64,000 nt of DNA, taken from the NCBI GenBank assembly GCA_017991635.1, contig JAGOQE010000002.1:35018-99017 (forward strand). The letters are read 5' to 3'. Source of the stretch: Minisyncoccota bacterium. Its GTDB lineage: Bacteria > Patescibacteriota > Minisyncoccia > Phycocordibacterales > Phycocordibacteraceae. This document shows, piece by piece, positions 14,715-56,684 of the stretch. The notes under the pieces were generated by a model, which was not told the DNA's origin, ran no database searches, and saw only the letters and a list, made by a program, of their open reading frames with translations. Position 1 is the stretch's first letter; each line of letters starts with the position of its first letter. A program made the position numbers and the translations under genes.

Positions 14715-14731
14715 GTAATTGTTTGTATGAA

Positions 14732-14760
14732 AAAGGGCGGGTCCTATGGACCCGCCCTTT
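14732..14760. terminator. Bidirectional intrinsic terminator between convergent greA and the 14784..15197 gene
   Basis: 13-bp perfect stem aaagggcgggtcc / ggacccgcccttt with a 3-nt loop, A-tract before and T-tract after, so it can work in both directions. Confidence 0.6.
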
Positions 14761-14783
14761 GCCGTTGGTGATGTCTCGCAACG

Positions 14784-15488: not shown

Positions 15489-15534
15489 TGGGAGATTGTG
15501 TCATATACTAGTCTACTAGTGGGATGAAGTGGGA
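15489..15534 (+). promoter_or_regulatory. Putative MraZ operator: three TGGGA direct repeats upstream of mraZ
   Basis: TGGGA at 15489-15493, 15520-15524 and 15530-15534. The last two sit inside 10-bp tandem units AGTGGGATGA and AGTGGGATAT, 28 nt upstream of the mraZ ATG. E. coli MraZ binds spaced TGGGN repeats in its own promoter. Confidence 0.4.
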
Positions 15535-15561
15535 TATTCGCTTCAAACCTAAAAACTACCT

Positions 15562-15996
15562 ATGTTCATCGGAGAATACCGTCACACTTTTGATACTAAG
15601 AATCGCGTCTCACTTCCTGCGAAGTTTCGTAAGGCTATTGGTACCTCCGTCATTGTTACTCGTGGCTTGGACCACTGTCTCTTTGTGTACTCAAAGACTG
15701 CTTGGAAGAAGGAAGCAGAGAAAATTGCTAAACACGCTACAGGAAATGCTGCTGGGCGTGGTCTTTCTCGTTTGATGCTTGCTGGCGCGTCAGAGGCTGA
15801 TGTTGATAGCGCAGGACGTATTCTTGTACCTGATTACCTACGCACCTTTGCTGGACTCTCAGACAAGGCAGTAATTGCTGGTGTGTCAGAGCGCATTGAA
15901 ATCTGGGATGAGAAGGCTTGGGAAACCTACACCAAGGCTATTGAGCGTGATGCAGATATGTTTGCAGAGACCCTCGGCACGCAAGGCGCCCTATAA
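15562..15996 (+). CDS. mraZ: Transcriptional regulator MraZ
   Basis: 144 aa; two MraZ/SpoVT-AbrB-like repeats (DTKNRVSLPAKFR...). First gene of the dcw cluster. Confidence 0.9.
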   Translation: MFIGEYRHTFDTKNRVSLPAKFRKAIGTSVIVTRGLDHCLFVYSKTAWKKEAEKIAKHATGNAAGRGLSRLMLAGASEADVDSAGRILVPDYLRTFAGLSDKAVIAGVSERIEIWDEKAWETYTKAIERDADMFAETLGTQGAL

Positions 15997-16000
15997 CAGT

Positions 16001-16948: not shown

Positions 16949-17225
16949 CCGAACTATTCCACTTTTGAGTGCTACTGCCATCCTCCTCTTCGTAGGGTAT
17001 TTGGGTCTTATGGTGACCACTATTTCATTTGCAACGTGGCAGACAGAGCTTACGCGTGAAATGCGCGACACTGAAGTGCGTATCGCTTCTCTTGAGGGTC
17101 GCTACTATGACCTCATAAAGACCGTTGGAGCAGAGGACCCAAGCACCTTTGGACTTGTTGAGCCGCGCGCTGTGCGCTACGTTGCTGAGGCTTCTCGCAA
17201 TGACCTCTCACTTCGGGGGGAGTAG
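16941..17225 (+). CDS. ftsL: FtsL-like cell division protein (single TM plus coiled-coil)
   Basis: About 94 aa, bitopic, positioned between rsmH and ftsI. Start at internal MPDRTIPLL. Confidence 0.55.
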   Translation: MPDRTIPLLSATAILLFVGYLGLMVTTISFATWQTELTREMRDTEVRIASLEGRYYDLIKTVGAEDPSTFGLVEPRAVRYVAEASRNDLSLRGE

Positions 17226-17234
17226 TATGGTGCT

Positions 17235-18962
17235 ATGCGAAGAGCATTTAGAGCACGACTTCGTATCCTCATCGTAGGCGTATTTGCAGTAGCGCTCTTT
17301 CTTGTCCTTAGACTCTATTTTGTACAGGTAGTGCACCAGGAAGATTACGCGTTAAAGGCAGAACGTCAGTATGTAAGCTCAAGCGCACGTCTGTATGACC
17401 GTGGCGCTATTTTCTTTACGCGAAAGGACGGCACGCTCATTTCAGCAGCAACACTTGGAACTGGTTTCACCATTGCGATGGACCCGTCTCACGTCAAAGA
17501 CCCAGAGGCGCTCTACGCCTCTGTTTCAGCTCTCGCCACTATTGACCGTACAGCGTTTGACCAGAGCATCGCAAAGACTGATGACCCGTATGAAGTCCTC
17601 GTTAAGCAAGTTCCCGAAGACGTTGGTCAAATCCTGTCTGAGAAGAAGATTCCAGGGCTTATCATTGAGCGCAATCGTTGGCGCGAGTATCCTGCAGGTG
17701 ATATTGCCTCACAGACTATTGGTTTTGTTGCCTATGACCAAGATGTCTTGGTGGGGCGCTACGGACTTGAGCGCTACTACGAACAGACTCTGAGTCATAA
17801 CTCAGACGGACTGTTCGGAAACTTCTTTGCTGAACTGTTTGCAAGTTTGGATAACGTTCTTGCCGACGGAAAGGAGGCAAAGCAGGGAGACATCATCACT
17901 ACCATTGAACCAGTGGTTGCGGACAAACTTTCCAGCATTCTTGATGGTGTGCAGGCACAGTACGGAAGTGTTGAGACAGCCGGTATCATCATGAACCCAA
18001 AGACCGGAGAAATTATTGCTATGGAAGTGCGTCCAAGTTTTGATTTGAATAATTATCGCGAAGCAGACAGTAGTCGCTTCGCGAATCCCTTTGTTGAAGA
18101 CGTGCGTGAGTTCGGCTCCATCATGAAGCCACTCACGATGACTGCTGGCTTGGATGCTGGTGTGATTACACCGGAGACTACCTACAACGACACGGGCTGT
18201 ATTACAGTGAATAAAAGTAAAATCTGCAACTTTGACCTTCGGGGTCGTGGAGTGGTACCGATGCAACGCATTTTGTCCGACTCGCTTAATACGGGCGTAT
18301 CCTTTATTACAGGACAGCTAGGTCACGATAGATTCCGAGACTACTTTATGAAGCTTGGTTTTGGTACTGAAACAGGTATTGATTTGCCTGAGGAGACTCG
18401 AGGACTTGTAGAAAACTTGAAGAGTCCTCGCGATGTTGAGTACTACACCGCATCCTTTGGTCAGGGTGTTGCGGTGACTCCTGTTGAAATGATTCGTGCA
18501 CTCGGCTCACTCGCAAATGATGGACAAATCGTGACTCCACACTTGGTGAAATCTATTCGTCTTGAGTCAGGCATCATGAAGCAGTTGTCATGGGGTTCGC
18601 CTGAGCGAGTATTCTCTAAGGAGGCGACAGAACAAACCACGCATATGCTCGTGAAGGTGGTGGACGAGTCACTTGCACACGGCACGGTGAAAATTCCTGA
18701 AATGAGTGTTGCCGCAAAGACCGGTACGGCTCAGCTTGCCGGACCTGGAGGGAAGTACTATGAATCAAAGTACCTCCACTCCTTCTTCGGGTACTTCCCA
18801 GCGTACGACCCTGAATTTGTCATTCTCCTCTATACGCGCGAGCCACAGGGTGTACAGTATGCATCTGAGACCCTGACGCATCCCTTTATGGAGTTGACGC
18901 ACTTCCTCATCAGCTATTACGATATTGCCCCAGATAGGGCCGTATACGAAGACCCCTCGTAA
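17235..18962 (+). CDS. ftsI: Penicillin-binding protein (FtsI/PBP3-type divisome transpeptidase)
   Basis: N-terminal TM, PBP dimerisation domain and transpeptidase motifs (SIMKP, KTGTAQ). dcw synteny. Confidence 0.85.
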   Translation: MRRAFRARLRILIVGVFAVALFLVLRLYFVQVVHQEDYALKAERQYVSSSARLYDRGAIFFTRKDGTLISAATLGTGFTIAMDPSHVKDPEALYASVSALATIDRTAFDQSIAKTDDPYEVLVKQVPEDVGQILSEKKIPGLIIERNRWREYPAGDIASQTIGFVAYDQDVLVGRYGLERYYEQTLSHNSDGLFGNFFAELFASLDNVLADGKEAKQGDIITTIEPVVADKLSSILDGVQAQYGSVETAGIIMNPKTGEIIAMEVRPSFDLNNYREADSSRFANPFVEDVREFGSIMKPLTMTAGLDAGVITPETTYNDTGCITVNKSKICNFDLRGRGVVPMQRILSDSLNTGVSFITGQLGHDRFRDYFMKLGFGTETGIDLPEETRGLVENLKSPRDVEYYTASFGQGVAVTPVEMIRALGSLANDGQIVTPHLVKSIRLESGIMKQLSWGSPERVFSKEATEQTTHMLVKVVDESLAHGTVKIPEMSVAAKTGTAQLAGPGGKYYESKYLHSFFGYFPAYDPEFVILLYTREPQGVQYASETLTHPFMELTHFLISYYDIAPDRAVYEDPS

Positions 18963-18974
18963 TACCTATATTTT

Positions 18975-20261
18975 ATGAAACAAATACTCAAATCCATGGT
19001 TGCCGGTATCCTCGCCCTTTTTGCGAGAGCTATTATTCGCAAATATAAACCCTACGTAGTCATGATTACGGGTAGCGTGGGTAAGACATCCACCAAGGAT
19101 GCAGTTCACGCCGTACTCGCGTCCTCTACCTTCGTGCGTGCCAGTGAGAAGAGCTATAACAGTGAGTTTGGAGTACCGCTCACCATTATTGGCGCCAAGA
19201 ATCCCTGGAACAATCCTATTGCCTGGCTTCGTGTCTTTCACGAGGCCACCTTGCTTTTATGTACAAAAAATCATTTTCCTAAGACACTCGTTCTTGAAGT
19301 TGGGGCAGATAGACCAGGAGACCTCAAGAATATTTTAAAAATTGCCACACCAGACGCAGTCGTCGTAACAAAGCTTCCTGAAGTGCCTGTCCATGTTGAA
19401 GCGTACGCTTCTCCGAGCGCCGTTCGTGATGAGGAATTTCTCCCAGCATATGCACTTAAGTCCGGCTCTCCGCTCATCTTGAGTAGTGACGACCCCTACG
19501 CACGTGAGATGGCCTCTCGTATTCAAGCTAAGGTCACTACGTATGGCACCGCCCCTGACGCTGATGTGCGCCTATCGGAGCCACATATTCGCTTTATAGA
19601 GGATACGCCAGTTGGCATGGAAGCGACACTCACTATTAAAGGGAAGTCATATCCGCTTCAGGTAAATGGCGCTCTCGGTATTCCACAGCTCTACGCGCCC
19701 TCAGCAGCATTCGCGCTTGCGTATGAGCTTTCCATGAGTGAGGAGGATATCTTGAAAGGTGTCGCTTCCTATGTGTCTCCAGCAGGGCGGGGAAGAGTCC
19801 TTCGCGGAATCAACAACTCAGTTCTTATTGATGATACGTATAATGCCTCTCCTGCTGCAGTTGTAGAGGCTCTCAACAATCTCTCCTTTATCCCTAATCG
19901 TCGCCGTGTCGCTATTTTAGGTGACATGCTTGAGCTCGGTCGGTTCTCCATTGAGGAGCATGAGAAGATTGGAGTTCTCGCAAAAGAAAAAGCGGACGTC
20001 TTGGTTACGGTCGGTGTGCGCTCTCGGGAGACCTGCACGGCCTCAAAGAAGGCTGGTATGGAGGAAGCTGTCACACACTGCTTCGATAGTACAAAGGACG
20101 CACTAAAGGGCATTAGAGACCTCGTAGGGGAGGGTGATGTGATTCTCATAAAGGGCTCGCAGTCTATCCGTATGGAGCATATTGTTGAGACACTGCTTGA
20201 GAACCCTGATGATAGCCAGTATCTGGTCCGCCAGGATACGGAATGGAAATCTATTAAGTAG
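18975..20261 (+). CDS. murF: Mur ligase family, most likely UDP-MurNAc-tripeptide--D-Ala-D-Ala ligase
   Basis: ATP-binding TGSVGKTSTK and C-terminal IDDTYNASP motif. About 430 aa, in the dcw position after ftsI. MurE cannot be excluded. Confidence 0.65.
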   Translation: MKQILKSMVAGILALFARAIIRKYKPYVVMITGSVGKTSTKDAVHAVLASSTFVRASEKSYNSEFGVPLTIIGAKNPWNNPIAWLRVFHEATLLLCTKNHFPKTLVLEVGADRPGDLKNILKIATPDAVVVTKLPEVPVHVEAYASPSAVRDEEFLPAYALKSGSPLILSSDDPYAREMASRIQAKVTTYGTAPDADVRLSEPHIRFIEDTPVGMEATLTIKGKSYPLQVNGALGIPQLYAPSAAFALAYELSMSEEDILKGVASYVSPAGRGRVLRGINNSVLIDDTYNASPAAVVEALNNLSFIPNRRRVAILGDMLELGRFSIEEHEKIGVLAKEKADVLVTVGVRSRETCTASKKAGMEEAVTHCFDSTKDALKGIRDLVGEGDVILIKGSQSIRMEHIVETLLENPDDSQYLVRQDTEWKSIK

Positions 20262-20457: not shown

Positions 20458-20529
20458 GGCCTCATCGTCTAACGGTTAGGACAGATCCCTCTCACGGATC
20501 AAATCGGGGTTCGATTCCCCGTGAGGTCA
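20458..20529 (+). tRNA. tRNA-Glu (anticodon CUC)
   Basis: Cloverleaf folded by hand: 7-bp acceptor stem (one G-U), 4-bp D stem with a GG-containing loop, anticodon stem gatcc/ggatc with loop c-t-CTC-a-c, 4-nt variable region, T arm cgggg-ttcgatt-ccccg, discriminator A, no encoded CCA. 72 nt. Confidence 0.8.
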
Positions 20530-20807: not shown

Positions 20808-22931
20808 TTGACGTACAGATCAAATTTTATCCGCTATACTATATCTGTGGAATTTTTCTCGTACATTGGTTTACACACTCTATACTTGCTCGTTTTTTCT
20901 ATTGCCCTCGGGCTCGGTTTGGGTGCGTCTGCGCTGAGCCATATACTTTTTCTTTTTTCAGGTCGTGATCGAACAGTGTCGCGCGACGAGTTTAAATTGT
21001 TGAAAGTGTCGCGCATTGTGGTCTGGGTCGCAATTCTTTTGTATGGGTTTAGTGGACTAGGTCTCTTTACACTTGCGTATGAGTCGATGATTGAGCTTGG
21101 AATTTTTTACGCAAGCCTGACCATCGCAGTGATCCTTATCGGGAATGAAATTGTATTTGCTATGCGTCACCTACCTCGCGTGCGCGATATTCGCGACGGA
21201 AGGATCGCGCTCGATGCACTCGTTTTAGAAAGTGGGGCTGTATCCGCGGTCTCGTGGGTATTTTTAATGTTTCATCACACAATCTACAGGACTGATATAG
21301 GATATTTTGCATTTATGGCGCTTTACGCCGTGGCTATTGCTATTGTTATGCTTTTGACATGGACTGTACGCCGAAGAGATGCGCGCACTCACGACACAAT
21401 AGTGTTGAAGCGGTCAGTTCTTGCCGCTCTTTTTTTCGCACTTGTTTTTGCAGGTGCATGGCTCGCCAAGGCTGACAGCGTTATAAAGCCTGCCGAAATA
21501 GGAAAGCGTCTAGCCACCGAAGTTGTTGGCTCGACTTACACAATTGATGATGTTGCCCTTCATAATAATTCAGAGGATTGTTGGCTCGTCATTGATAGCA
21601 AGGTATTCAACGCGACTGAAGCGTCACGTCTTCATCCTGCAATGTTCAACTGTGGCGAGGAGGTGAGTGAGAATTATCACAAGAACCATGGCGAGGGCAT
21701 CAGAGATAAGATGATGAAGTACTACATAGGCGATCTTCGCAGCGGGAAAGGTGTAACGAATACCGACGCACCCTTCAAGAGGAACGAGACACTCAAACCG
21801 TACCGCGAGTTGTATGTTGACGAAGGATCGTGGAATGCACTTGAATTGATGCTTGTTGTTGAAAAAGATGCCGAGAAGCTCCTTGCTATCGACGGAACGA
21901 CGCACACGGTGATTGGGCGCGTGCACGATGTTGGTTTTCAGCCACACACCTCTGTCTACTCTTCGGATGCAAAATACATGTATATCATTTCTCGGGATGG
22001 ATGGCTCACGAAGATTGACCTAACTACTCTCGAGCCAGTCGCATCAGTGCTCGTAGGTGAGAATTCGCGCGGGACAGCTATCACTGATAACGATAAATAT
22101 GTTGCCATCGGCAATTACAATCCCGGGAATGTTGTTATCCTTGACGCTTCATCGATGGAAATTCTAAAAACTATACCGCTCTCGATGGAAAAGGATGGTA
22201 AACAGATTGAGTCTCGTGCGGGTGCAGTTGTCGAAGATGGAAATCGGATTATTGTTGCGCTTAAAGACGGGACCAGTGTTTGGGCGATAGATACTGACCA
22301 ATCTGGGTTCCCTGTGACGCATAAATTTTCGGACATAGGAGCCGGCAGGCCCGCGCTCCACGACGCCTTTCTCACACCAAATGGCTCGCATTATATTGTT
22401 GCATCGCAAGGATCGAAGACCGCATGGATACTTGATGTGGCGACCATGAAACCAGTTGCGGAGATAGAGACTGGCGATACACCGCACACGGGCCCGGGTG
22501 CTGCTTGGGGTAACTACATTTACATCCCGTCGTTGGGAGAGGGCCTTATTACTGTTATCGATATGACCACATGGAAGCCAGCGAAATATATAAAGACCGG
22601 CGGACCAGGTCTGTTTGTGCGGAGCTACAGTAAGGATCCGACCTATCCATATGTGTGGGCCGACACTGCATTCGGCGATCACAAGGATGAGATTTATGTT
22701 ATTGACGCGCGAGTCAATGAGATCGTGAAAACGATTATTCCGGTTAAGGGCGAAAGTTCGTGGCATCCGGAGTTCACCTATGATGGAAAATTTGTTTACG
22801 TTGTATCTCAATCTGCGAACGAAGTTGAGGTGTACGATGCGTACACCTTTGATATCGTAAAGCGCATTAAATCTGAGACACCTTCAGCGATATCTAACGT
22901 TGGCCTACGAATCGAAGAGCCAGGACTGTAA
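20808..22931 (+). CDS. Membrane-anchored fusion protein: N-terminal polytopic membrane domain, cytochrome b5-like heme-binding domain, C-terminal beta-propeller (YVTN/cd1-like repeats)
   Basis: Several N-terminal TM helices. The middle segment fits the cyt-b5 pattern (LHNNSEDCWLVIDSKVFNATEASRLHPAMF...YHKNHGEG). The C-terminal region has repeated beta-propeller-like blades. Confidence 0.6.
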   Translation: MTYRSNFIRYTISVEFFSYIGLHTLYLLVFSIALGLGLGASALSHILFLFSGRDRTVSRDEFKLLKVSRIVVWVAILLYGFSGLGLFTLAYESMIELGIFYASLTIAVILIGNEIVFAMRHLPRVRDIRDGRIALDALVLESGAVSAVSWVFLMFHHTIYRTDIGYFAFMALYAVAIAIVMLLTWTVRRRDARTHDTIVLKRSVLAALFFALVFAGAWLAKADSVIKPAEIGKRLATEVVGSTYTIDDVALHNNSEDCWLVIDSKVFNATEASRLHPAMFNCGEEVSENYHKNHGEGIRDKMMKYYIGDLRSGKGVTNTDAPFKRNETLKPYRELYVDEGSWNALELMLVVEKDAEKLLAIDGTTHTVIGRVHDVGFQPHTSVYSSDAKYMYIISRDGWLTKIDLTTLEPVASVLVGENSRGTAITDNDKYVAIGNYNPGNVVILDASSMEILKTIPLSMEKDGKQIESRAGAVVEDGNRIIVALKDGTSVWAIDTDQSGFPVTHKFSDIGAGRPALHDAFLTPNGSHYIVASQGSKTAWILDVATMKPVAEIETGDTPHTGPGAAWGNYIYIPSLGEGLITVIDMTTWKPAKYIKTGGPGLFVRSYSKDPTYPYVWADTAFGDHKDEIYVIDARVNEIVKTIIPVKGESSWHPEFTYDGKFVYVVSQSANEVEVYDAYTFDIVKRIKSETPSAISNVGLRIEEPGL

Positions 22932-45737: not shown

Positions 45738-46370
45738 ATGACTGATTCTGTTGAGAAGCGTGCCAAGAAGCATTTTAAAAAGACGGACGAAGTCATGTAT
45801 CGTCTAGCCGAGAATGCCGAGAAAAAGCACCTGTGGACAACTCGCCTGACCGAGAAGCGAGTAAGTGGGCGCTTGTTTGAGACCCTTGCTTCTTCAGTCG
45901 TAAGTCAGCAACTTTCAACGAAGGCGGCAGACACTATCTGGAATCGACTCAAGGGTGTGTGTGGTGGCAGGGTCACCCCTGACACTATTTTGGCTACGCC
46001 ACTTCCCTCTCTCCGTAGTGCGGGACTCTCTAATGCAAAGTGCAAAACGCTTACCGAACTTTCCCTTGCTATAAAAAATGGACTCAACCTCCCTGCCCTC
46101 AGGAACATTTCAGAAGATGAAGCTATCAAGAAATTATCTGCTGTCTGGGGTATTGGCACATGGACCGCTGAGATGTTTCTCATCTTTGCCTTGCAGAGAG
46201 AGGATGTTTTTTCCGTAGGTGATCTTGGTCTCGTGCGCGCTGTTGAAGAGGCGTATGGACTTCCAAAAGATACGCCAAAGAAAACTATTGAGGAGATGAG
46301 TCTTGCGTGGGCGCCGTATCGTTCGTACGCCTGCCTACTGTTGTGGAATTTTCGCGATACCAAATCCTAA
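45738..46370 (+). CDS. HhH-GPD superfamily DNA glycosylase (AlkA/3-methyladenine glycosylase II-like)
   Basis: VWGIGTWTAEMFLIFAL...VGDLGLVRA hairpin-helix-GPD region with the catalytic Asp. Confidence 0.7.
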   Translation: MTDSVEKRAKKHFKKTDEVMYRLAENAEKKHLWTTRLTEKRVSGRLFETLASSVVSQQLSTKAADTIWNRLKGVCGGRVTPDTILATPLPSLRSAGLSNAKCKTLTELSLAIKNGLNLPALRNISEDEAIKKLSAVWGIGTWTAEMFLIFALQREDVFSVGDLGLVRAVEEAYGLPKDTPKKTIEEMSLAWAPYRSYACLLLWNFRDTKS

Positions 46371-47734
46371 AGGAAGGACATTGGGTTTAGGTATCCATCC
46401 TTCGGAGCGACTGGCATACGAGCATTTGCGCATGGTGATGTTGCACCTCGGTACTGTGCAAGCGTCATAATCTGTACTGCCTGACTTGCGTACACACTAA
46501 AGTGAAGGTGAGGACCAGTTGCGTAGCCAGTCATGCCTGAGTAGCCGATAGTTTGTCCTGTCGTGACTGTCTGTCCAGCAACGACATCAATAGTTGAGAG
46601 ATGGGCGTAGAGCGTTGACAGGCCGTTAGCGTGCTTTATGAGCACCCATTTTCCGTAGGAATAACAACCAGCAACGGCATCGGTATTTCCGGTTCCAGAC
46701 ACTGTGCCAGAAAGGGCTGCGAGAAGTGGAGTACCTACAGGAAGACCGATATCAATGGCATTGTGGCCGTTGCCGTTATAGACCTGTGAGTTTGCTGTAG
46801 CGAAGGGAGTATTACCAAAATACTGAGTAATACAGTAGGGATTTCCAAGCGCTGAAGCCTTCCCGCGACAGCTCTCTGCGACTGAGGCTGAGTAGGGCCA
46901 AATGAGGACACCAGAGCCAACTGAAGGAATGCGCGTCGAGTCAATGTCTACCTTCAGGCTGTTTTCGAGTGCTTGGAGTTCGCTCTCAAAGGCTTTCTGC
47001 TGAGCGCGCTTCTGCGCGATGAGTGTTTGGTAACTTCCCTCTTGAGACTTCGTTTGCGCAAGGAGTTGCTCCTTTGCGCGCTTGTTTGCAACAAGCTCGG
47101 CCTCTTGAGAGCTGAGGTCATTGTTGAGTGAGATGAGCTCCTTTCGTGATTTTGCAACTTCAGCCTGTTGGTCCACGAGCACAATCTTTGCTGAGGCAAG
47201 ATCAATAGTTCGTTCACGAAGCGCGTCTGAAAGTTGAGCCATGTCATCAGCAGCAGTCCACGCTTCAGTTAAGCTTCTTGATGAAAAAAGGTGTTCGACG
47301 AGCGTAGTATCGTCGGCACTATCTAGGGAGCGTATGGAGGCGGCAATTGCCTGCCTATCAAGGGCAATAGCCTCCTCCTTACTTCCAATCATGGAACCAA
47401 GTTCCTCTATGCGAAGATTTGCAGCGCTAATTTTACTCTGGGTGAGTTTAATCTGGGCGGTGATTTTAGACCGGGAGACATCAAGTCCCTTAATGGCTGA
47501 CTGAAGTGTCTGGCGCTGATTGCCTAGAGCATTTAGTTCTTTCTGATAGCCCGCGATTTCTTTCTCAAGATCCTTAATCTTGTCGTTTGTCGTACTAATT
47601 TGAGACTTAATATCATCAACCGCTTGTCCAAAAACAGTTTGTGGAGAATTTCCTAACAGAAAGAAGATACTAAGGAGAAAAACAAAGGCAAGAGACCCTT
47701 GTCTAAGCTCTGAAGGAACACGGGACAAACTCAT
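46367..47734 (-). CDS. M23 family peptidase with N-terminal coiled-coil (EnvC-like murein hydrolase/activator)
   Basis: Signal/TM, long coiled-coil, C-terminal LytM domain (HxxxD...H..GYSGMTGYATGPHLHF). Confidence 0.8.
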   Translation of the reverse strand: MSLSRVPSELRQGSLAFVFLLSIFFLLGNSPQTVFGQAVDDIKSQISTTNDKIKDLEKEIAGYQKELNALGNQRQTLQSAIKGLDVSRSKITAQIKLTQSKISAANLRIEELGSMIGSKEEAIALDRQAIAASIRSLDSADDTTLVEHLFSSRSLTEAWTAADDMAQLSDALRERTIDLASAKIVLVDQQAEVAKSRKELISLNNDLSSQEAELVANKRAKEQLLAQTKSQEGSYQTLIAQKRAQQKAFESELQALENSLKVDIDSTRIPSVGSGVLIWPYSASVAESCRGKASALGNPYCITQYFGNTPFATANSQVYNGNGHNAIDIGLPVGTPLLAALSGTVSGTGNTDAVAGCYSYGKWVLIKHANGLSTLYAHLSTIDVVAGQTVTTGQTIGYSGMTGYATGPHLHFSVYASQAVQIMTLAQYRGATSPCANARMPVAPKDGYLNPMSFL

Positions 47735-47736
47735 TC

Positions 47737-49167
47737 CTACAGTATAGCAAGAGCTCCTTCTATGCGTGAAATGACTTCCTTGCGGGGTAGGATATGAATA
47801 AGAGTAAACGGATCGGGAGAACGCTCTTGTCCTGTGAGTGCGTATCGAAGTGGCCAGAGCACAGCTCCTCTTCCTCCGCGCTCCTTCGAAATTGAATCTG
47901 CGTATGGCATGAGGTGCGATTTAATCGTCTCTACATCAGCTAATTCAGGTAGGGAGTCAACGAGAGCCTGTAGCGCATGAAGATGCTCTCCTGTTGCGGA
48001 AGTGTCCTTCGTGGGCTCTTTGCTGACCAAGAGCTCTTTATCTAGGGTCGGAGCGTTGAAAAAGAATGAGAGCTCTGTTGCGAGCATGTCACGTGCCTCG
48101 CTAAAGGTAGCTGCCCGCTCTTTGAGGAGAGGTACAAGCATAGGTAGGAGTTCTCGGCTCGCACTCGTCTCACCGAGCTTCTCTATGTATGTCTCCTCGC
48201 TGAGAGTACGCATCCACTCACGATTAATGTGAAGTAGTTTATCTTCATCAAAACGAGCACCGCTTTTACCTATATCGGTGATATCAAAAGCTGCAGTTAT
48301 GTCCTCTAGGGAAAGTACCTCACTTCCCTCCTCTGGGTGCCAGCCAAGCAAAGAGAGGAAATTCACCATTGCGTGCGGAAGATACCCCTCAGCACGGTAG
48401 TCGAGAATATCTTTTGCGCCATCGCGCTTACTTAGTTTCTTAGTGCCTGCCTCTCCAAGAATTGGTGGCAACGTTACGAAAATAGGTGGTGGCATATCCA
48501 GTGCCTCGTACAAAGAAAGGAATTTAGGCGTTGAGGACACAAACTCGTTCCCACGCATGACGTGCGTGACACCCATCTCAATATCATCTACTACGTGAGC
48601 AAAGTTATAGGTGGGGTATCCGTCATTCTTGATTAATACAAAGTCATCAAGCGCTTCTTCGCCTGCAGAGAGTTCTCCGAGGACAGCATCCTGCCAGGTG
48701 TAGCGCACTACGCGAGGTACCTTGAAACGAAGTGTTGTTTCACCATCCCACTCACCTGCCTGCTCTGGACGATGTTCTCGGTAGAGAAACGGACGTCCTT
48801 CAGACTCTGCGCTTTTGCGAAGCTCGTCTATTTCTTCCTCAGTAAAGGGGTCAGGATATGCAAATCCGGCTTCAAGAAGACGACGTGCGTAGTCTTGATA
48901 GAGCGGTAGTCGTGCAGACTGAATGTATGGGCCATACGGGCCATCAACGTCTGGTCCTTCATCCCACTCTATGCCAAGCCAACGGAGACTCTCCATAATG
49001 TGTCCAATAGCGCCTTCAACTTCCCGTTCCTTATCGGTGTCCTCAATACGAAGAAGAAACTGACCTCCCATTTTGCGAGCGTAGAGCCACGCAAAAAGTG
49101 CGGTGCGAACACCGCCTACGTGCATAAAGCCAGTTGGACTTGGGGCGAAACGGGTACGTACACTCAT
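47737..49167 (-). CDS. gltX: Glutamyl-tRNA synthetase
   Basis: RFAPSPTGFMHVGG (HIGH) and KLSKR (KMSKS). Confidence 0.9.
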   Translation of the reverse strand: MSVRTRFAPSPTGFMHVGGVRTALFAWLYARKMGGQFLLRIEDTDKEREVEGAIGHIMESLRWLGIEWDEGPDVDGPYGPYIQSARLPLYQDYARRLLEAGFAYPDPFTEEEIDELRKSAESEGRPFLYREHRPEQAGEWDGETTLRFKVPRVVRYTWQDAVLGELSAGEEALDDFVLIKNDGYPTYNFAHVVDDIEMGVTHVMRGNEFVSSTPKFLSLYEALDMPPPIFVTLPPILGEAGTKKLSKRDGAKDILDYRAEGYLPHAMVNFLSLLGWHPEEGSEVLSLEDITAAFDITDIGKSGARFDEDKLLHINREWMRTLSEETYIEKLGETSASRELLPMLVPLLKERAATFSEARDMLATELSFFFNAPTLDKELLVSKEPTKDTSATGEHLHALQALVDSLPELADVETIKSHLMPYADSISKERGGRGAVLWPLRYALTGQERSPDPFTLIHILPRKEVISRIEGALAIL

Positions 49168-50318
49168 ACTGTTTCCTCTGTTATGTCATGAGCTCGTCCG
49201 ATAGACAAGAGCGCTTCCGCTATACGGGTAGAGGCCATTCCATCTGAAAAGAGCGCTCCCTTTGCTCCCATATCAGACCCTAGAGAAGGATTCTCAGCAA
49301 TACGGCGTATCTCAGATACCAGCACGTGAGGGGTGAGGTTGGATTGCTCCACAACGACTGCGGCGCCTGTGTGTGCGTATGAGTAGGCATTAGTGCGCTG
49401 GTCGTGACTTACATCCTCTGGGATTGGAATAAGCACGGCAGGACGTCTCCATAGTGAGGCTTCAGCAATAGCTGTTGCGCCTGCTCGAGAGACAATAACG
49501 TGCGCGGCACCAGCGGCCATCTTGAGCGATTCTGCTGAGAAAAATGGCTGGGCATGGTAGCGAGTTGCGTACGGATTCTTGTGAAGAATCACTTCAGCCG
49601 TCTTTGCCACTTCCTTGTAGTGTTCCTTTCCTGTTTGATGAATAACATTAATGTGCGAAACCAAATCAAGAAGGCCAGCAAGAACAATTTCATTAATGGC
49701 AACAGAGCCCGATGAACCACCCAGGATGAGTACTGTAGGTACCGAAGCATCAAGCCCAAAATGAGCGATACCTCCAGAAGGGTCAAGGTGTTGAAGCGTC
49801 TTTCGAAGCGGAATACCCGTCTTAGCTATTTTTGCGCGAGCCTTTAGAGGAAAGTATTTAGCGGAGTCATCAAAGGAGACGGCAATGTGTGTTGCGAACC
49901 GTGAAGCAAGGAGATTTGCGCGCCCGGGTTTCGCGTCTGACTCGTGGATAATAATAGGGATACGCAGAAGGTGTGCTGCAAGCACTGTGGGCACACTCGC
50001 GTACCCTCCCTTTGAAAAAACGACATCAGGATAGATTTTAAAAAGTGTGACGAGACACCAAAAAGTCCCCCAGAGTGTCACAAAGGGGTCAGTAAGATTC
50101 TTCAAGCTCGCATAACGGCGCATCTTCCCTGCAGGACTCTTGATGTAACGAATGCCGTTAGCAAAGAGGGACTCCTCGTCATAGGGGCTTGGCGCAATAT
50201 AAAAGAGTTCGGGCTCAAGTTCCCTCTTCTCATTACGGATATCTCGCAGTGCCTCGGCTACTGCAATAATGGGGTAAAAATGCCCTCCTGTGCCTCCTCC
50301 GGTAAAGACAATTTTCAT
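49164..50318 (-). CDS. murG: UDP-GlcNAc:lipid I N-acetylglucosaminyltransferase MurG
   Basis: FTGGGTGGHFYP N-terminal motif; GT-B fold GT28. Confidence 0.88.
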   Translation of the reverse strand: MKIVFTGGGTGGHFYPIIAVAEALRDIRNEKRELEPELFYIAPSPYDEESLFANGIRYIKSPAGKMRRYASLKNLTDPFVTLWGTFWCLVTLFKIYPDVVFSKGGYASVPTVLAAHLLRIPIIIHESDAKPGRANLLASRFATHIAVSFDDSAKYFPLKARAKIAKTGIPLRKTLQHLDPSGGIAHFGLDASVPTVLILGGSSGSVAINEIVLAGLLDLVSHINVIHQTGKEHYKEVAKTAEVILHKNPYATRYHAQPFFSAESLKMAAGAAHVIVSRAGATAIAEASLWRRPAVLIPIPEDVSHDQRTNAYSYAHTGAAVVVEQSNLTPHVLVSEIRRIAENPSLGSDMGAKGALFSDGMASTRIAEALLSIGRAHDITEETV

Positions 50319-50343
50319 ACCTAACGTCTATAGAGTATAGCAC

Positions 50344-51435
50344 TTAGTCCAAAGTGAGCTTCTCGGGTGGCTTGGTCGCCTTCTCAAGAAGCATTTCCGT
50401 GTAATCTTTAAGATGAGGAACAATAATACTGTCGGCAAGGTGTGTGTAGTACCGAAATACGGAAGACACAACACTTACACTCCTTTCTCCTGAGACACCT
50501 TGAGTCCGAGCATCTCTTGCAGGACAGCCAAGACGAAGTTCGTCGTTGTCATTGCCTCCCCTGACTTTTTTGTATAATTCAAACTGCGTCAGCGCTTCCT
50601 GATCGAAGACTAGTCTCGGTGAGCCTTCATTATCCTCAAGCGAGAAGAACTCAAGGGGAAACTCAAGGCGTACCGATTTATTGAGCGACTTCCCTGCCCG
50701 AGCAAATTGTAAGAGACGCGAGAAGCTGTGTATGTGTAGTGAGGAAAGTTGTATGACGAGCGCTTCAGCTTGCCGTGCTACCTCTCGATACTCGTCTTCT
50801 GAAATAACCTTTCCGTACGTGTTGTAGTAGGCAAAAGGAATAGCTCGAAGAATATCGAAGGAGACACTTCCTACAGTATTGGCTCCTCGGATAATAAACG
50901 ATTCGACGTGATGATAAGGGTCAATCTTTCTTGTGTTGGTAAGTGAGGTCTCAATAAAGAGGTCGTGGAGTCTACTGTACACTCTGTGGTCATACTGAGC
51001 GTCTCCCTTCCCTGCCTTGGCGCGATTTGACCACGCTTCAAGAGAATCAGTAAACGCAGTAACGTACGCCTGCTCTGCCCACTCAAGAACCGTTTTGGCA
51101 TAGGAGGCGTCTTCACGAGACTTGCGTAAATCATACACGTGAACCTCTCCATCCTCAGGCACTGGAAATTTAATAATGTTTCTCACCACAAGTTTATCTG
51201 GATTCTCAGTAAGCTCTTTAAAAGCTTCATCATGCACTTTTTCAATAATATAGGCTGAGAGTGCATATGCTTCAGTTTTCACTTTCTCGTATTCAGGAAG
51301 TTCAATAGTGTCAGGATCTTCAGGAGAGTGCGGAATGGGATAGACGTGTTCACGAAGCTCTTTCAGTTTTCGGGCAATTGGCTCCCCGGTTCTTTCCGGA
51401 TACAAAATACTTTTGATTGGAAATTTCTCACTCAT
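50344..51435 (-). CDS. Hypothetical protein (363 aa) between ftsW and murG
   Basis: Soluble; no motif recognised. Occupies a slot inside the conserved mraY-ftsW-murG block. Confidence 0.5.
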   Translation of the reverse strand: MSEKFPIKSILYPERTGEPIARKLKELREHVYPIPHSPEDPDTIELPEYEKVKTEAYALSAYIIEKVHDEAFKELTENPDKLVVRNIIKFPVPEDGEVHVYDLRKSREDASYAKTVLEWAEQAYVTAFTDSLEAWSNRAKAGKGDAQYDHRVYSRLHDLFIETSLTNTRKIDPYHHVESFIIRGANTVGSVSFDILRAIPFAYYNTYGKVISEDEYREVARQAEALVIQLSSLHIHSFSRLLQFARAGKSLNKSVRLEFPLEFFSLEDNEGSPRLVFDQEALTQFELYKKVRGGNDNDELRLGCPARDARTQGVSGERSVSVVSSVFRYYTHLADSIIVPHLKDYTEMLLEKATKPPEKLTLD

Positions 51436-51437
51436 AC

Positions 51438-52553
51438 TTAGGTAACGGCTCGCTTAACTTTGGGACGATGGGCGGCAATATTCAAAATAACACCCACCGA
51501 GGCTAGGGTGACCAAGAGCGCTGTTCCTCCATGGGAGATGAATGGAAGTGGAAGACCCGTGAGTGGCATAACACCGAGCATGGCACCCATGTTCATAAAG
51601 GCCGATATGGCTATCATTAAGGTAAGGCCTGTGGCAGCCAGAAGTCCAAAAAGGTTCGGTGCGTCTGCCGCAATCATAAAACCTCTTGCCGTGAACATAA
51701 GGAAAAGAAAGACCAGGAATATGGTTCCCAGAAGTCCAAACTCCTCTCCGTAGACTGCAAAAATAGAGTCGCCGTGAGGCTCGGGAAGATAGTTAAACTT
51801 CTGGACGCTCTGACCATATCCGCGTCCAAGGAGCCCGCCAGAACCAATGGCGATGAGTGATTGCTGTACTTGATACCCTTCATGAAGTGGGTCTGCTGCA
51901 GGATTAACAAAGGTCATGACACGGTCCATGAGGTACGGTCGGAATGAAATAAGTATGGCAAGTCCCACGATAGCCGTTGCAATAATGATTGCGATGTCAC
52001 GTAGTTTGGCTCCTGCGAGGAAGTAGAGAGCAAGAGACGTCGCACCAATGACGAGGACTGTTGAGGTGTTTGGTTGCAGAAGAAGAAGTATGGACGGAAG
52101 TCCTACAATTATGCCAAGGCCAAGGAGACCGAACCGTGGACTTTGAATCTTAGTTTTAATATGCGCCAGGTACGCTGAGAGCATTAAGATAGTACCTATT
52201 TTAATAAATTCAGCTGGCTGAATAGTGGTGAATCCCAGATTAATCCAACGCGTAGCACCGTTTGCACTCTGTCCAATCCCGGGAACGAAAACGAGAGCAG
52301 TTAGTATGAGTGCAACGATATAGAGTGGGAGAATCCCCTTCGCGAGAAGCTTGGGTGGTGTAAAACGAACGGCAATGAGGGCTATGATACCTGGCACAAG
52401 ACCAAGAAGAAGTTGGGTAAAGGCAAGTCGCCATGGAGAGGCTCCTTCAGTACGTGCGAGAAGACCGAGTGCTGCAGAAGCGAAAAGCGCGATGCCAAGC
52501 ACTACCAATACAAGAACAATGAGTGCGAAGAGTCGGTCTCCAGTAAGGTGCAT
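51438..52553 (-). CDS. ftsW: SEDS-family peptidoglycan glycosyltransferase FtsW/RodA
   Basis: Ten TM helices, SEDS pattern, dcw context. Confidence 0.85.
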   Translation of the reverse strand: MHLTGDRLFALIVLVLVVLGIALFASAALGLLARTEGASPWRLAFTQLLLGLVPGIIALIAVRFTPPKLLAKGILPLYIVALILTALVFVPGIGQSANGATRWINLGFTTIQPAEFIKIGTILMLSAYLAHIKTKIQSPRFGLLGLGIIVGLPSILLLLQPNTSTVLVIGATSLALYFLAGAKLRDIAIIIATAIVGLAILISFRPYLMDRVMTFVNPAADPLHEGYQVQQSLIAIGSGGLLGRGYGQSVQKFNYLPEPHGDSIFAVYGEEFGLLGTIFLVFLFLMFTARGFMIAADAPNLFGLLAATGLTLMIAISAFMNMGAMLGVMPLTGLPLPFISHGGTALLVTLASVGVILNIAAHRPKVKRAVT

Positions 52554-52557
52554 TTTC

Positions 52558-53619
52558 CTATTGTAACAGGGCGATGGCTACTCCGAACATGCCAGAGATG
52601 ATGGTGATAACCCAGTAACGCATAGTGACCTTATAGGGTGGCCAGCCAAGTGCTTCAAAGTGGTGATGAATAGGGGCAATCTTGAAAAGCTTTCGTTTGA
52701 ATACTTTCTTCGAGAAGACCTGAAGTACGTCGGTCACTACTGTTACAAAAAGTGGCAGTGCAATTATGGGAAGTACAGAAACACCCACTCCCTCTGAAAG
52801 CACGTCTGAGGAGAACGCAGTGAGTGTAAGCGCCATGGTAAGCGCCATGGTCCCAGTCTCTGATAGGTAGAATCGCGCTGGCGGAATATTGAACCAAAGA
52901 AAGGCAAACAAGCTTCCGGCGACCGTGGCCGCAAATCCAGCAAGGGCTATTTGATTCTGTGAGAATGCTATTCCTGCGTAGGCAAGGAAAATAATAGCGA
53001 ATACGCCTCCAGCCAAGCCATCAATTCCATCAATGACACCACTGGCGTAGACGGCGAGTGCGACGAGTACAAAAAACACAATGAAGAGCGGACCTAGAGG
53101 CAATGCTCCCATAAACGGTATTCCTACTGCTGACACGCCAAGTTTTGCATAAAACCACCAGCCAGCAAAAAGACCAAAACCTCCAACTAGGAGAAGACGC
53201 TTGGTAAGTGAAAGGCCTCCCTTCCCCCGAGTAACTTCAAGAATATCGTCTATAAGTCCTACACAGCCTCCAAGGACAAGTGCAAATAACGGAAGCCATG
53301 TTTGACCACGGTTAAGGAAATCAAGATCAGTAAATGCGCCATTGAAGAGTGCGGCGAGGATGACGAGAATAAGGGTCACGACAAGCGTGGTGCCCCATAC
53401 CAACACGCCTCCCATGCGAGGTGTGTTTACTTCACGTTCCTTATGAAGTTCATTGAAGAGTGGTGTGCCTGAGGCGTCACCGAGTCCCTTTTCCTTACCG
53501 CCTTTCTTCTTCCATGCCTTGTGTGCGTAGAGGTAGTGCGCAAGTACAGGAGCGAGCGCGATGCCGAGCGTAAAGGCAATAACAAAAGGAATAAGGACTC
53601 GTGCGGCGTCTAGAATCAT
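52558..53619 (-). CDS. mraY: Phospho-N-acetylmuramoyl-pentapeptide transferase MraY
   Basis: Polytopic; MraY conserved Asp and His region (PIHHHFE). Confidence 0.9.
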   Translation of the reverse strand: MILDAARVLIPFVIAFTLGIALAPVLAHYLYAHKAWKKKGGKEKGLGDASGTPLFNELHKEREVNTPRMGGVLVWGTTLVVTLILVILAALFNGAFTDLDFLNRGQTWLPLFALVLGGCVGLIDDILEVTRGKGGLSLTKRLLLVGGFGLFAGWWFYAKLGVSAVGIPFMGALPLGPLFIVFFVLVALAVYASGVIDGIDGLAGGVFAIIFLAYAGIAFSQNQIALAGFAATVAGSLFAFLWFNIPPARFYLSETGTMALTMALTLTAFSSDVLSEGVGVSVLPIIALPLFVTVVTDVLQVFSKKVFKRKLFKIAPIHHHFEALGWPPYKVTMRYWVITIISGMFGVAIALLQ

Positions 53620-54560
53620 GGTGCGTCTGGGTAAGCAAAGCCGTCTAGGGTTGCATCCATAAGTGCTTCAACATCACTGAAGCGACCTTCCTTGGTAGAG
53701 CCTAGTACCACCACTGCTATAGGGTGATTAAAGGACGCATCAAATACCACAGCAAGGTTCCCTCCTGCTAGGTCGGTGAATCCAGTCTTTGACAAGAGTG
53801 TTCCTGGCTGGCTTGAGACATGCTGATTCGTGTTTTGAAGTGTATGCAGAGCCCCCTCTTCGCTGTAGACACTCACGCTATTTGAGACAGTGGCCGAAGC
53901 AAGCTCAGGCGCTGCTGCGAGAAGTGCTCCAGATAGAAGAGCAACATCTCTTGCTGAACCATAGGCCCCAGAAACATTGGTGCTCTCATCAAGTCCTGTT
54001 CCGTTCACCGCATAGGTTTGAGTGAGTTTTGCAGCAGTAATAGCACTTCCCATAAGCGCAGCCTTCGCGACTCCCTTCTTGGTGCTTGCTGTTTCCGCAA
54101 TCGCCGCCGCCGCATCGTTTGATGAGGCCACAAGCGCAAGTTTGGCGAGGCGTTCAAATGTAAACGACTCACCTAAGGCAAGACCACTCTCGCCTTCAAC
54201 GGCAAGTGCTGAGTCAGAAATAGTGATGCGAGTTTCTTTAGGAATAGCACCAAGAGCTGCATAGACGGTAAGAAGCTTGGTCAAAGATGCGAGTGGAAGT
54301 TGTGCCTCTGCATTCTTTTCATACAGAGTCTCTCCAGTAGTGAGGTCATATACAATTGCAGCCTTTGCAGTAACTCGAACAGAACTCAAGCGCTCGCTTG
54401 AGAATGTAGGAAGAACAGCAGTTTGCGATGGTGGCTTCTGTACTATCGGGAAGAACAAAGTAAGGATGCCGAGAATGATGCTGAGCACAATGATTGCAGC
54501 ACCAGCCTGAAGCCAGCGTTTATCTCCGGTCCAAAAATGTGAAAGTCTAGGCAGTGTCAT
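53616..54560 (-). CDS. D-alanyl-D-alanine carboxypeptidase (S11/PBP5-like), membrane-anchored
   Basis: SxxK motif ASLTKLLT, SxN SSN and KTG motifs. Start moved to the internal ATG (MTLPRLSHFW) to reduce overlap with scpB. Confidence 0.75.
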   Translation of the reverse strand: MTLPRLSHFWTGDKRWLQAGAAIIVLSIILGILTLFFPIVQKPPSQTAVLPTFSSERLSSVRVTAKAAIVYDLTTGETLYEKNAEAQLPLASLTKLLTVYAALGAIPKETRITISDSALAVEGESGLALGESFTFERLAKLALVASSNDAAAAIAETASTKKGVAKAALMGSAITAAKLTQTYAVNGTGLDESTNVSGAYGSARDVALLSGALLAAAPELASATVSNSVSVYSEEGALHTLQNTNQHVSSQPGTLLSKTGFTDLAGGNLAVVFDASFNHPIAVVVLGSTKEGRFSDVEALMDATLDGFAYPDAP

Positions 54561-55110
54561 GAATGGTTTCTGAGGCGGTCTGGCGTACTTCTTCCTTTGC
54601 AAGAGCGACTTTAAATGTTTGGTACTCGGGAAGCTCAGTAAGTGATGAGACTCCAAGGTGTGAAAGAGCGTCTACTGTAGGTTCGTAACAGGCTCTTCGC
54701 TTGTCGCTCGGGTCGTCTACACGCTTCACCAGTCCTCGCATCAAGAGAGAGCGGAGCGCTGCTCCAGAGTTCACACCACGCACCCAGTCTATGTGTCCAC
54801 GCGTTGCTTGTCCGCGATACACAATTACAGCAAGTGTCTCAAGACCGGCCTTTCCTAGGTCACGAGAGAGCTCGGCCTCACGAAGCTTCTTGGTAAGTTC
54901 AAAGGTCTCCGGATGAGTGCGGAGTTCAACGTCGTCATTAACTTCAACCAATGCTAGTCCACGGTCGTCTAAGTCGGTACGAAGCTGGCCAAGGGCCATT
55001 TCTAGGAGGTCAGGACTCACTCCAAGAAGCGTACATAGCTTCTTTTTAGAAAGAGGCTCTCCTGCGGCAAACAGAAGGGCTTCAAGAGTTGCTCCAGGCG
55101 AACGTGCCAT
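54547..55110 (-). CDS. scpB: Segregation and condensation protein B
   Basis: Winged-helix ScpB pattern (ALLFAAGEPLS...). Start at internal MARSPG. Confidence 0.75.
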   Translation of the reverse strand: MARSPGATLEALLFAAGEPLSKKKLCTLLGVSPDLLEMALGQLRTDLDDRGLALVEVNDDVELRTHPETFELTKKLREAELSRDLGKAGLETLAVIVYRGQATRGHIDWVRGVNSGAALRSLLMRGLVKRVDDPSDKRRACYEPTVDALSHLGVSSLTELPEYQTFKVALAKEEVRQTASETIHDTA

Positions 55111-55164
55111 ATCTATAGAGAATACCCTACTAAAACTCGAAGACCAACCTGTTTCAAGTGAGTT

Positions 55165-55953
55165 TTGGCGTATACTACGAAGTACATGACGTATATAGAT
55201 AGTATTATCCTCGGCATCATAGAAGGATTCACCGAGTTTCTCCCTATTTCTTCCACAGGTCACCTTATTTTGGGAAGTGTTCTGCTTGGCCTTCCCCAGA
55301 CTGATGTTCTAAAAAGTTTTGAAATAGCTATCCAGCTTGGTGCTATTTGTGCAGTTGCCCTGTTGTTCTGGAAGCGATTTTTAGACTGGAGTATCCTTAC
55401 GCGCCTTCTTTCGGCATTTATACCAACGGCTGTTATTGGTCTCCTCCTCCATTCTTTTGTAAAAGAGCACTTGCTTGGTAATCCTTACGTCGTGGTGGCG
55501 GCGCTCTTTCTTGGTGGTGTTTTTCTTATCGTCTTTGAGTTTTTTCACAAAGAGGACAAAACTAAAGAAGAAGACATCACTGACATTTCACACAAGCAGG
55601 CCTTCATTGTCGGTGTGTGTCAGGCTTTCGCCATAGTTCCAGGCGTGTCGCGTTCTGCTGCAACTATTGTGGGCGGTCTTTCGCTCGGCCTCCGCCGTGC
55701 ATCAATTGTTGAGTTTTCATTCCTGCTCGCTGTTCCTACCATGCTCGCAGCAACGACGCTTGATGTCGCAAAAAGCTACCAGCTATTTTCCGTTAACGAT
55801 ATCGGTCTTATCCTAACTGGATTTACCACTGCCTTTCTTGTTGCTCTCGTTTCAGTTAAATTCCTCCTTCACTATGTAAAGCGCTACACATTTATGCCAT
55901 TTGGTGTGTACCGTATTATTGTGGCACTACTCTTTTTCTTCCTAGTGCTTTAA
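55165..55953 (+). CDS. uppP: Undecaprenyl-diphosphatase
   Basis: BacA/UppP conserved regions (EGFTEFLPISSTGHL, PGVSRSAAT). Confidence 0.9.
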   Translation: MAYTTKYMTYIDSIILGIIEGFTEFLPISSTGHLILGSVLLGLPQTDVLKSFEIAIQLGAICAVALLFWKRFLDWSILTRLLSAFIPTAVIGLLLHSFVKEHLLGNPYVVVAALFLGGVFLIVFEFFHKEDKTKEEDITDISHKQAFIVGVCQAFAIVPGVSRSAATIVGGLSLGLRRASIVEFSFLLAVPTMLAATTLDVAKSYQLFSVNDIGLILTGFTTAFLVALVSVKFLLHYVKRYTFMPFGVYRIIVALLFFFLVL

Positions 55954-56684
55954 TAGCGAGGCACGTCAGCCTTTGAATTAGTTATCGTGATGTCCTCAAA
56001 TTTTTCGTGTTGCTCTGCGCCAACGACACCTTGCTTCACAAGCTCCAAGAGAGCAAGAAACGACACAATTACCTCAACCTTTTCCTTTGAGTTTCCAGAA
56101 AACTCTTTAAATGAAAGCGTCAGTGCAGTCTGCACACGCTTTGTCAGTGTATCCATAACCTCTTCAAGGGAAATAATAGAACGCACTCTCGCCTCAGGAA
56201 GTTCGACCTGTTTCTCAAGCGCCATAAGAGCATCACGAAGTGCACTTTGAAGGGATGCGGATGAAAGGTCTTTGCTTGGTGCAAAAATAATTTCTGGAGC
56301 TTTCTCCCCTCTCTCAAGTAGCACTGCTTTTCCGAACATGCCCGAAAGAATGCGCGAAGCTCTACGTGCTTCCTCATATGCCTTAAGTCTTCGCGTGAGA
56401 TCATCAACATCTCCTTCCTCTTCCTCAGTGAGTTCAAGTTGCGGAAGAAGTGATTTTGATTTTATTAAAAGTAGTGTGGCGGCAACAGCGATGAAGTCAG
56501 TCGCCTGCTCCATAGGAAATTCTGCGTGAGAACGGATATGGAGAATAAAGTCGTCAGTGACGCTCGTGAGCGATACTTCGTTCACGAGAAGTTTACGCTT
56601 TTCTATAAGGTCCAAGAGAAGTTCTAATGGGCCTTCAAAGCTCGTGGTGCGTACGGTGTAGTTCTTCTGTACTAGTTCTTCCAT
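55950..56684 (-). CDS. scpA: Segregation and condensation protein A
   Basis: ScpA kleisin pattern, 244 aa. Confidence 0.75.
   Translation of the reverse strand: MEELVQKNYTVRTTSFEGPLELLLDLIEKRKLLVNEVSLTSVTDDFILHIRSHAEFPMEQATDFIAVAATLLLIKSKSLLPQLELTEEEEGDVDDLTRRLKAYEEARRASRILSGMFGKAVLLERGEKAPEIIFAPSKDLSSASLQSALRDALMALEKQVELPEARVRSIISLEEVMDTLTKRVQTALTLSFKEFSGNSKEKVEVIVSFLALLELVKQGVVGAEQHEKFEDITITNSKADVPRY

Follow-up and report, generated by a model that had tools for sequence, protein, structure and literature searches.

An undescribed protein family with an invariant Cys-Pro loop, inserted between ftsW and murG in a Minisyncoccota genome

We analysed a 64,000-nucleotide stretch of DNA from a Minisyncoccota bacterium (GenBank assembly GCA_017991635.1, contig JAGOQE010000002.1, forward-strand positions 35,018 to 99,017; hereafter the window, to which coordinates without a locus label refer) and the 363-amino-acid (aa) open reading frame (ORF) at 50344-51435 on its minus strand, which lies between ftsW and murG and which we call X. 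X encodes a cytoplasmic protein of an undescribed family, whose few named members belong to Paceibacterota/Minisyncoccia of the candidate phyla radiation (CPR). Our preferred reading, to which we assign a probability of about 0.45, is that X is a putative accessory enzyme centred on its cysteine C304, with a helical core resembling that of cytochromes P450, a variable N-terminal substrate region and expression coupled to envelope growth. A sequence-only reading of the same DNA had proposed X as a lineage-specific cell-wall or division factor and had drawn attention to the absence of murD from the surrounding block; both proposals are considered below.

X is a genuine gene from a protein family not described before

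The X translation starts with ATG and runs without an internal stop codon. Searches of Pfam, NCBIfam, PHROGs, PADLOC and the PDB sequences returned no match to it; in the last of these, phmmer and hmmsearch with the family profile both returned 0 matches at E ≤ 10. The result was the same for the family, since 90 diverse members contained no Pfam domain even at E ≤ 10, and X together with five diverse members drew no matches from PHROGs or PADLOC. The protein has a single Cys, an isoelectric point of 5.65, a grand average of hydropathy of -0.49, a maximal 19-residue Kyte-Doolittle value of 0.92 and no hydrophobic segment. Its earlier description as soluble and devoid of any recognisable motif is borne out by these data.

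A word-indexed search of 5.8 billion proteins returned nine X homologues (98-30% identity), all of them unnamed or ‘hypothetical’, and when 1.84 billion cluster representatives were searched exhaustively with a profile, 177 matched at E ≤ 1e-3, including 18 at E ≤ 1e-30. Across the family, identity to X ranges from 98% down to less than 25%. Repeating the word-indexed search with a 90-sequence alignment added one further protein only. A scan of genome contigs revealed one Paceibacterota metagenome-assembled genome with a family member, and a scan of Joint Genome Institute metagenomes with a family alignment revealed no family member. Where members carry an organism name, it is either ‘Candidatus Paceibacterota bacterium’ or ‘Minisyncoccia bacterium’.

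The ratio of nonsynonymous to synonymous substitution rates (dN/dS) between X orthologues is 0.095-0.098 (~0.10), compared to 0.02-0.05 for FtsW, MurG and MraY. AlphaFold2 modelled X with a mean predicted local distance difference test (pLDDT) score of 70.8 when nine homologues were supplied, and with a pLDDT of 91.3 and a predicted template-modelling score of 0.91 when the 90-sequence alignment was used. The range of homologues, a dN/dS of ~0.10 and a confident model together establish X as a real gene under purifying selection.

Domain arrangements vary among the members. The member in locus L006 has an adjoining tandem paralogue (L006 9012-9971) that retains Q-C-P-V, P0065 (690 aa) is a fusion of two X domains with x-G-C-P-F in each, and P0127 is X fused to an N-terminal domain of ~325 residues with faint similarity to a protein-kinase C-lobe (E 0.54 to PIM-2).

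Conservation centres on a Cys-Pro loop in a predicted helical fold

In the 90 members C304 is invariant (100%), and it is followed by G184 (98%), E55 (93%), P305 (92%), A306 (91%), R155 (89%), G303 (86%), K53 and P340 (83% each), P200 (81%) and G316 (80%), with T187 (74%) and R301 (71%) lower. Position 188, a Val in X, is Ala in 76% of them. The Cys-Pro dipeptide persists in the tandem paralogue and in both halves of the P0065 fusion. When only close homologues are compared, residues 1-60, 173-265 and 299-325 are conserved, and residues ~66-170 are variable.

The model of X is mostly helical. It predicts a long helix at residues 49-77, a hairpin at 81-102 and four helices up to residue 163; a middle part made of a 35-residue central helix (173-207), helices 213-231 and 235-247, a hairpin (264-277) and a helix at 279-291; and an end formed by the C304 loop, a short helix (305-308), a hairpin (310-321) and two C-terminal helices. 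C304 is placed by the model just ahead of the short helix. We infer that a functional centre would be found around C304, in the G-C-P-A loop at the N-terminus of this helix, together with G184-x-x-T187, K53/E55 and R155, and that the variable region (~66-170) may serve substrate recognition.

When both X models were compared with the PDB using Foldseek, P450s ranked first, and these matches were not significant (E 0.3 or worse, template-modelling score ≤0.21); the confident fold has no significant PDB match. Judging by the model, the heme-binding core of cytochromes P450 would be the closest counterpart to the fold of X, as a resemblance only. The putative equivalence of C304 with the P450 heme ligand is likewise one of resemblance.

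Three other identities suggested by short motifs or by structural noise were discarded. An L,D-transpeptidase-like G-C-x-R was ruled out since that family has a beta fold, a C-x5-R phosphatase loop since R310 is not conserved in the family, and an HD-domain hydrolase, which arose from SAMHD1/PDE noise in Foldseek, since there is no conserved His/Asp metal motif.

X is an insertion in a conserved operon

X is located in a compact block of mostly minus-strand genes (Table 1). It is separated by 2 nt from ftsW upstream and by 25 nt from murG downstream, while mraY and ftsW are 4 nt apart, there are 4-nt overlaps between S11 and mraY and between murG and gltX, and most of the remaining same-strand junctions overlap or have gaps of ≤4 nt. 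A consensus scan around X found no promoter-like or terminator-like site above chance. X is very probably co-transcribed with ftsW and murG, which supports its earlier description as an operon member with tight gaps to both neighbours. GC content is slightly reduced over X (0.45-0.47 versus 0.49-0.52 in the flanks).

A junction survey that did not depend on X was made by scanning metagenome contigs with a MurG alignment, which yielded 80 loci with 44-62% MurG identity that were annotated with phmmer and hmmsearch. The ScpA-ScpB-S11-MraY-FtsW-MurG-GltX-M23 block is conserved across these loci, mostly without X, which was present in just one of the 73 loci having both FtsW and MurG (L020). When loci found via X itself are included, X occupies the junction in 6 of 78 loci, plus the window, and is absent from 72 of the 78; the ftsW-murG gap is shorter than 200 bp in 64 of these 72. 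On a neighbour-joining tree of MurG, all X-positive loci fall in one nine-leaf subclade, which also contains the X-less loci L014, L015 and L033. A tblastn search of the junctions in these three found no X remnants, and the idea of a decayed X was therefore rejected.

The order ftsW-X-murG is also found in L010 (X 73% identical), L005 (70%), L011 (58%) and L012 (~34%), and L001 has ftsW, a histidine-phosphatase gene, X (~33-35% identical) and murG. The histidine phosphatase (L001 9462-10004) is one of several unrelated occupants of the ftsW-murG junction, the others being an APH/homoserine-kinase-like protein of 329 aa (L075 4117-5106), a 229-aa orphan (L062 4822-5511) and a 149-aa ORF (L017 2944-3393). 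In relatives, the junction is permissive for insertion. X has been inserted there in an otherwise conserved operon, is confined to one subclade and, because relatives lack it, is dispensable; it would not be a core component. The simplest history is one insertion at the permissive junction followed by losses.

Membership of the operon is a poor guide to function in this lineage. gltX is embedded between murG and the M23 peptidase gene with 4-nt and 2-nt junctions, an arrangement that holds in ~70 related loci. Since gltX (and scpAB) are inside the block, belonging to it does not imply a shared function.

X diverges faster than its neighbours

Compared with L011 (X at L011 1470-2561), the window proteins are 98% identical for FtsW and 58% for X, and over the available fragments 96% for MraY and 93% for MurG. 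For L005 the values are 96% (FtsW) and 70% (X), and for L010 they are 91% and 73%. On these identities, X diverges several-fold faster than its neighbours and in a different order from them. This incongruence suggests rate heterogeneity, or recombination or allelic replacement.

Family members also occur outside the cell-wall operon

Of the 15 contexts examined, eight do not belong to the cell wall (L002, L006, L007, L008, L093, L094, L095 and L003/L004, of which L003/L004 is too short to show neighbours). X homologues are found between MGMT and DUF192 genes followed by RNR (L002 8001-12161); beside the paralogue mentioned above, with HAD, MarR, FMN-reductase, Na/Ca-exchanger and beta-CASP genes nearby (L006); between purD and purE, the latter leading into purM-purC-purB (L007 2-2744); adjoining IMPDH (L008 8001-10117); adjoining infC-rpmI-rplT and DUF805 (L093); between a hibernation factor gene and fmt-def (L094); and between a TraG-like gene and NDK (L095 5001-6695). 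Homologues outside the cell-wall operon are often no more than two genes away from nucleotide-metabolism genes (purD/purE, NDK, IMPDH, RNR), a weak recurring association.

The missing murD is a lineage-wide feature

In the window mraY is followed directly by ftsW and murD is absent from the block, just as the sequence-only reading had noted. The missing murD is no peculiarity of the X locus: in ~58 related loci with MraY and FtsW, most of them without X, there were 0 Mur ligases between the two genes, which are directly adjacent in most, and murD stands beside mraY in none of the 73 loci from the MurG scan. Because X-less relatives are also without murD beside mraY, the gap is a lineage-wide feature of a fragmented division and cell wall (dcw) cluster and is independent of X.

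A phmmer search of the 64-kb window with its own MurF and E. coli MurD as queries found no Mur ligase besides MurF and did not match X; with the same queries, no related locus had a Mur ligase between MraY and FtsW. Mur ligase genes are dispersed in relatives, with MurE downstream of the block in L074 and MurF upstream of it in L029. The source genome is expected to have murD elsewhere, because MraY, MurG, MurF, penicillin-binding proteins and a DD-carboxypeptidase are all present.

Table 1. Features of the window discussed in the text
Feature	Position	Strand	Basis or remark
Second cell-wall/shape block	10480-20261	+	mreB, mrdA, rsmH, ftsI, murF
mrdA	12501-14171	+	
rsmH	15875-16948	+	
ftsI	17235-18962	+	
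murF	18975-20261	+	Sole Mur ligase in window; second cell-wall block
tRNA	20458-20529	+	After murF
Conserved block	46367-56684	-	scpA, (uppP on +), scpB, S11, mraY, ftsW, [X], murG, gltX, M23; X is an insertion
M23 peptidase	46367-47734	-	Pfam/NCBIfam
gltX	47737-49167	-	Pfam/NCBIfam
murG	49164-50318	-	Pfam Glyco_transf_28 and Glyco_tran_28_C; TIGR01133, 1.4e-67
X, 363-aa soluble protein of an undescribed Paceibacterota family	50344-51435	-	ATG to stop; ORF list and translation
Signature loop with the sole Cys, codons of R301-L-G-C304-P-A-R-D-A-R310	50506-50535	-	90-member conservation and model
Central helix, second most conserved site, codons of G184-A-N-T187-V188	50872-50886	-	90-member conservation and model
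ftsW (SEDS, FtsW/RodA family)	51438-52553	-	Pfam FTSW_RODA_SPOVE, 1.7e-94; TIGR02614 ftsW, 337 bits
mraY	52558-53619	-	Pfam Glycos_transf_4; TIGR00445 mraY, 1.5e-31; ftsW directly next, no murD
S11 DD-carboxypeptidase	53616-54656	-	Pfam/NCBIfam
scpB	54547-55263	-	
uppP	55165-55953	+	
scpA	55950-56684	-	

With ORF starts set mechanically, the genes for the S11 carboxypeptidase (TTG, 346 aa) and ScpB (GTG, 238 aa) overlap by ~110 nt. Called orthologues are shorter (313-317 aa for S11 and 185-187 aa for ScpB), so the window starts of both are probably over-extended.

Discussion

We regard X as an accessory insertion in a conserved envelope operon that would be neither a core lipid II or divisome component nor a replacement for MurD. 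The thiolate of C304 would either ligate a cofactor, as in heme-thiolate proteins, or serve as the catalytic nucleophile towards a small-molecule substrate in the cytoplasm. Co-transcription with mraY-ftsW-murG may tie the dose of X to envelope growth in the subclade and need not mean that X acts on peptidoglycan.

Several observations weigh against this proposal. The link to P450s is weak, with only about half of X aligning. The P450 family model PF00067 matched neither X nor any of the 90 members even at E ≤ 10. An hhalign comparison of the X family with a 52-sequence CYP119-type profile gave a probability below 0.5%; the first run was made against a P450 model of 678 match columns, which was poor, and a rerun with first-sequence match states on three alignments stayed below 0.5% in every case. 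The P450 loop signature FxxGxRxCxG is absent from the X family, and so is a conserved ExxR: X has E218-x-x-R221, neither residue of which is conserved in the family, and the nearest conserved acidic residue, E215 (68%), has no Arg at +3. None of the criteria tested places X in the P450 family. CPR bacteria are usually without heme synthesis and mostly anaerobic. Lastly, the ftsW-X-murG order persists while X identity falls from 98% to ~29-35%, a long-lived linkage that counts against a role of X not specific to peptidoglycan.

The window also encodes a 707-aa protein (20808-22931, plus strand) with a cytochrome b5-like heme-binding domain (residues 246-310) and a Cytochrome D1-type beta-propeller (343-698). 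In a CPR-type genome such a putative heme protein is out of the ordinary, and it bears on heme availability to X. A search of the literature on P450s in Patescibacteria and on CPR dcw clusters found nothing relevant.

Linkage speaks for X being a lineage-specific cell-wall or division factor that works with FtsW and MurG; it could modify lipid I/II or its carrier, for instance, or regulate the SEDS-MurG step or serve as its scaffold. The gene order is kept in seven loci, the 2-nt and 25-nt gaps place X within the operon, and no internal promoter or terminator was found. We nevertheless consider such a role unlikely, given that X is missing at 72 of 78 junctions, and also in three loci of the subclade to which it is confined, that other family members are located in purine, NDK, IMPDH, RNR, ribosomal and other contexts and in one case as a tandem pair, that unrelated genes occupy the same junction in other lineages, that a block which also carries gltX and scpAB says little about the function of its members, and that the peptidoglycan genes change far more slowly than X does. 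Of the original proposal, lineage specificity is upheld; the cell-wall role is not, as synteny is limited to one subclade and the family is found in other contexts. A narrower idea, which overlaps with the mechanism that we prefer, is that X is a divergent minimal P450-type heme-thiolate oxygenase or peroxygenase, in which C304 would be the proximal ligand and G184-x-x-T187 would form the oxygen groove of the I-helix. We consider this idea unlikely as well. Its most specific form is quite unlikely: X would found a putative minimal heme-thiolate enzyme family of CPR/Paceibacterota, derived from the P450 fold and with a G-C-P-A ligand loop, that in this subclade is co-expressed with MraY, FtsW and MurG and might oxidatively modify a polyprenyl- or nucleotide-linked envelope precursor.

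A non-enzymatic role, as a thiol sensor or regulator with a redox- or heme-sensing Cys-Pro, or as a structural protein or scaffold, would suit a sole cysteine in an invariant Cys-Pro; tandem paralogues and the two-domain fusion suggest a dimeric assembly, and one member has an extra N-terminal domain with faint kinase-like similarity. Yet X is without a DNA-binding or signalling domain, its Cys is predicted to be in a structured, confidently modelled loop and not in a disordered heme-regulatory motif, and the conserved E55, K53, R155 and T187 fit a catalytic pocket, so that we find this role very improbable. We give almost no credence to X being mobile, phage-derived or defence cargo, or a substitute for MurD. 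X is an insertion relative to most relatives, its GC content is slightly lower and its divergence is incongruent with that of the flanks; but there are no PHROGs or PADLOC matches, no repeats, integrase or tRNA at its borders, and its position has been stably inherited across deep divergence. The MurD substitute is effectively ruled out by the helical model with small hairpins, by the lack of Mur_ligase_M, Mur_ligase_C and a nucleotide-binding P-loop, and by relatives whose block contains neither X nor murD.

What is new here is the protein family itself. For X and ~177 related clusters no relative is detectable in Pfam, NCBIfam, PHROGs, PADLOC or the PDB, and yet the family has a confident fold and an invariant Cys-Pro loop. 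Its interest is moderate, because orphan families abound in CPR genomes and the argument from murD dissolves. If X is an accessory orphan, useful negatives follow, namely that mraY-ftsW without murD is normal in this lineage and that operon membership should not be taken for cell-wall function. CPR/Paceibacterota are believed to be without heme synthesis and without chemistry that depends on oxygen. A thiolate-cofactor or P450-like X, if true, would add an unexpected class of redox enzyme to CPR bacteria and open a way into envelope or nucleotide chemistry specific to the lineage, in organisms that are not culturable alone. The invariant Cys-Pro loop, the confident fold with a weak P450 resemblance and the odd evolution make X a reasonable target for study.

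Comparison with known systems

X resembles P450s in its invariant Cys at the start of a helix, in a G-x-x-T within its longest helix and in a conserved C-terminal core next to a variable N-terminal half. The spacing of key residues is comparable to that in CYP119: G210 to T213, T213 to C317 and C317 to the end are 3, 104 and 51 residues apart, against 3, 117 and 59 for G184 to T187, T187 to C304 and C304 to the C-terminus of X. With respect to the I-helix motif (A/G)-G-x-(D/E)-T-(T/S), X has the right spacing from G184 to T187, while the acidic residue is absent and no alignment supports the correspondence. The P450 loop F-x-x-G-x-[RH]-x-C-x-G differs from the R-x-G-C-P-A consensus of the X family, which has no Phe at -7, has Arg at -3 and not at -2, and has Pro-Ala after the Cys instead of x-Gly. 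Unlike P450s, including the minimal forms CYP119 and CYP231A2 (PDB 2rfb), X is predicted to have a beta-hairpin between the Cys and the long C-terminal helix, and its N-terminal half does not align.

In chloroperoxidase (CPO), unspecific peroxygenases (UPO) and Cys-Pro heme-regulatory motifs, a Cys-Pro dipeptide provides the Cys thiolate as heme ligand; in CPO/UPO, with their P-C-P motif, the proximal helix has the Cys at its N-terminal end and an acidic residue works on the distal side. X resembles them in its invariant C-P-A and conserved E55, a short motif that would relate the two by analogy only; it has no match to Pfam Peroxidase_2 and its fold is different.

Relative to the canonical dcw cluster (mraZ-rsmH-ftsL-ftsI-murE-murF-mraY-murD-ftsW-murG-murC...), the window keeps the relative order of mraY-ftsW-murG and of rsmH-ftsI-murF. 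It differs in that the genes fall into two blocks on opposite strands with ~30 kb between them, neither of which contains murD, murE or murC, and in that the mraY block is flanked by scpAB and the genes for the DD-carboxypeptidase, GltX and the M23 peptidase, an architecture that is found in ~80 relatives.

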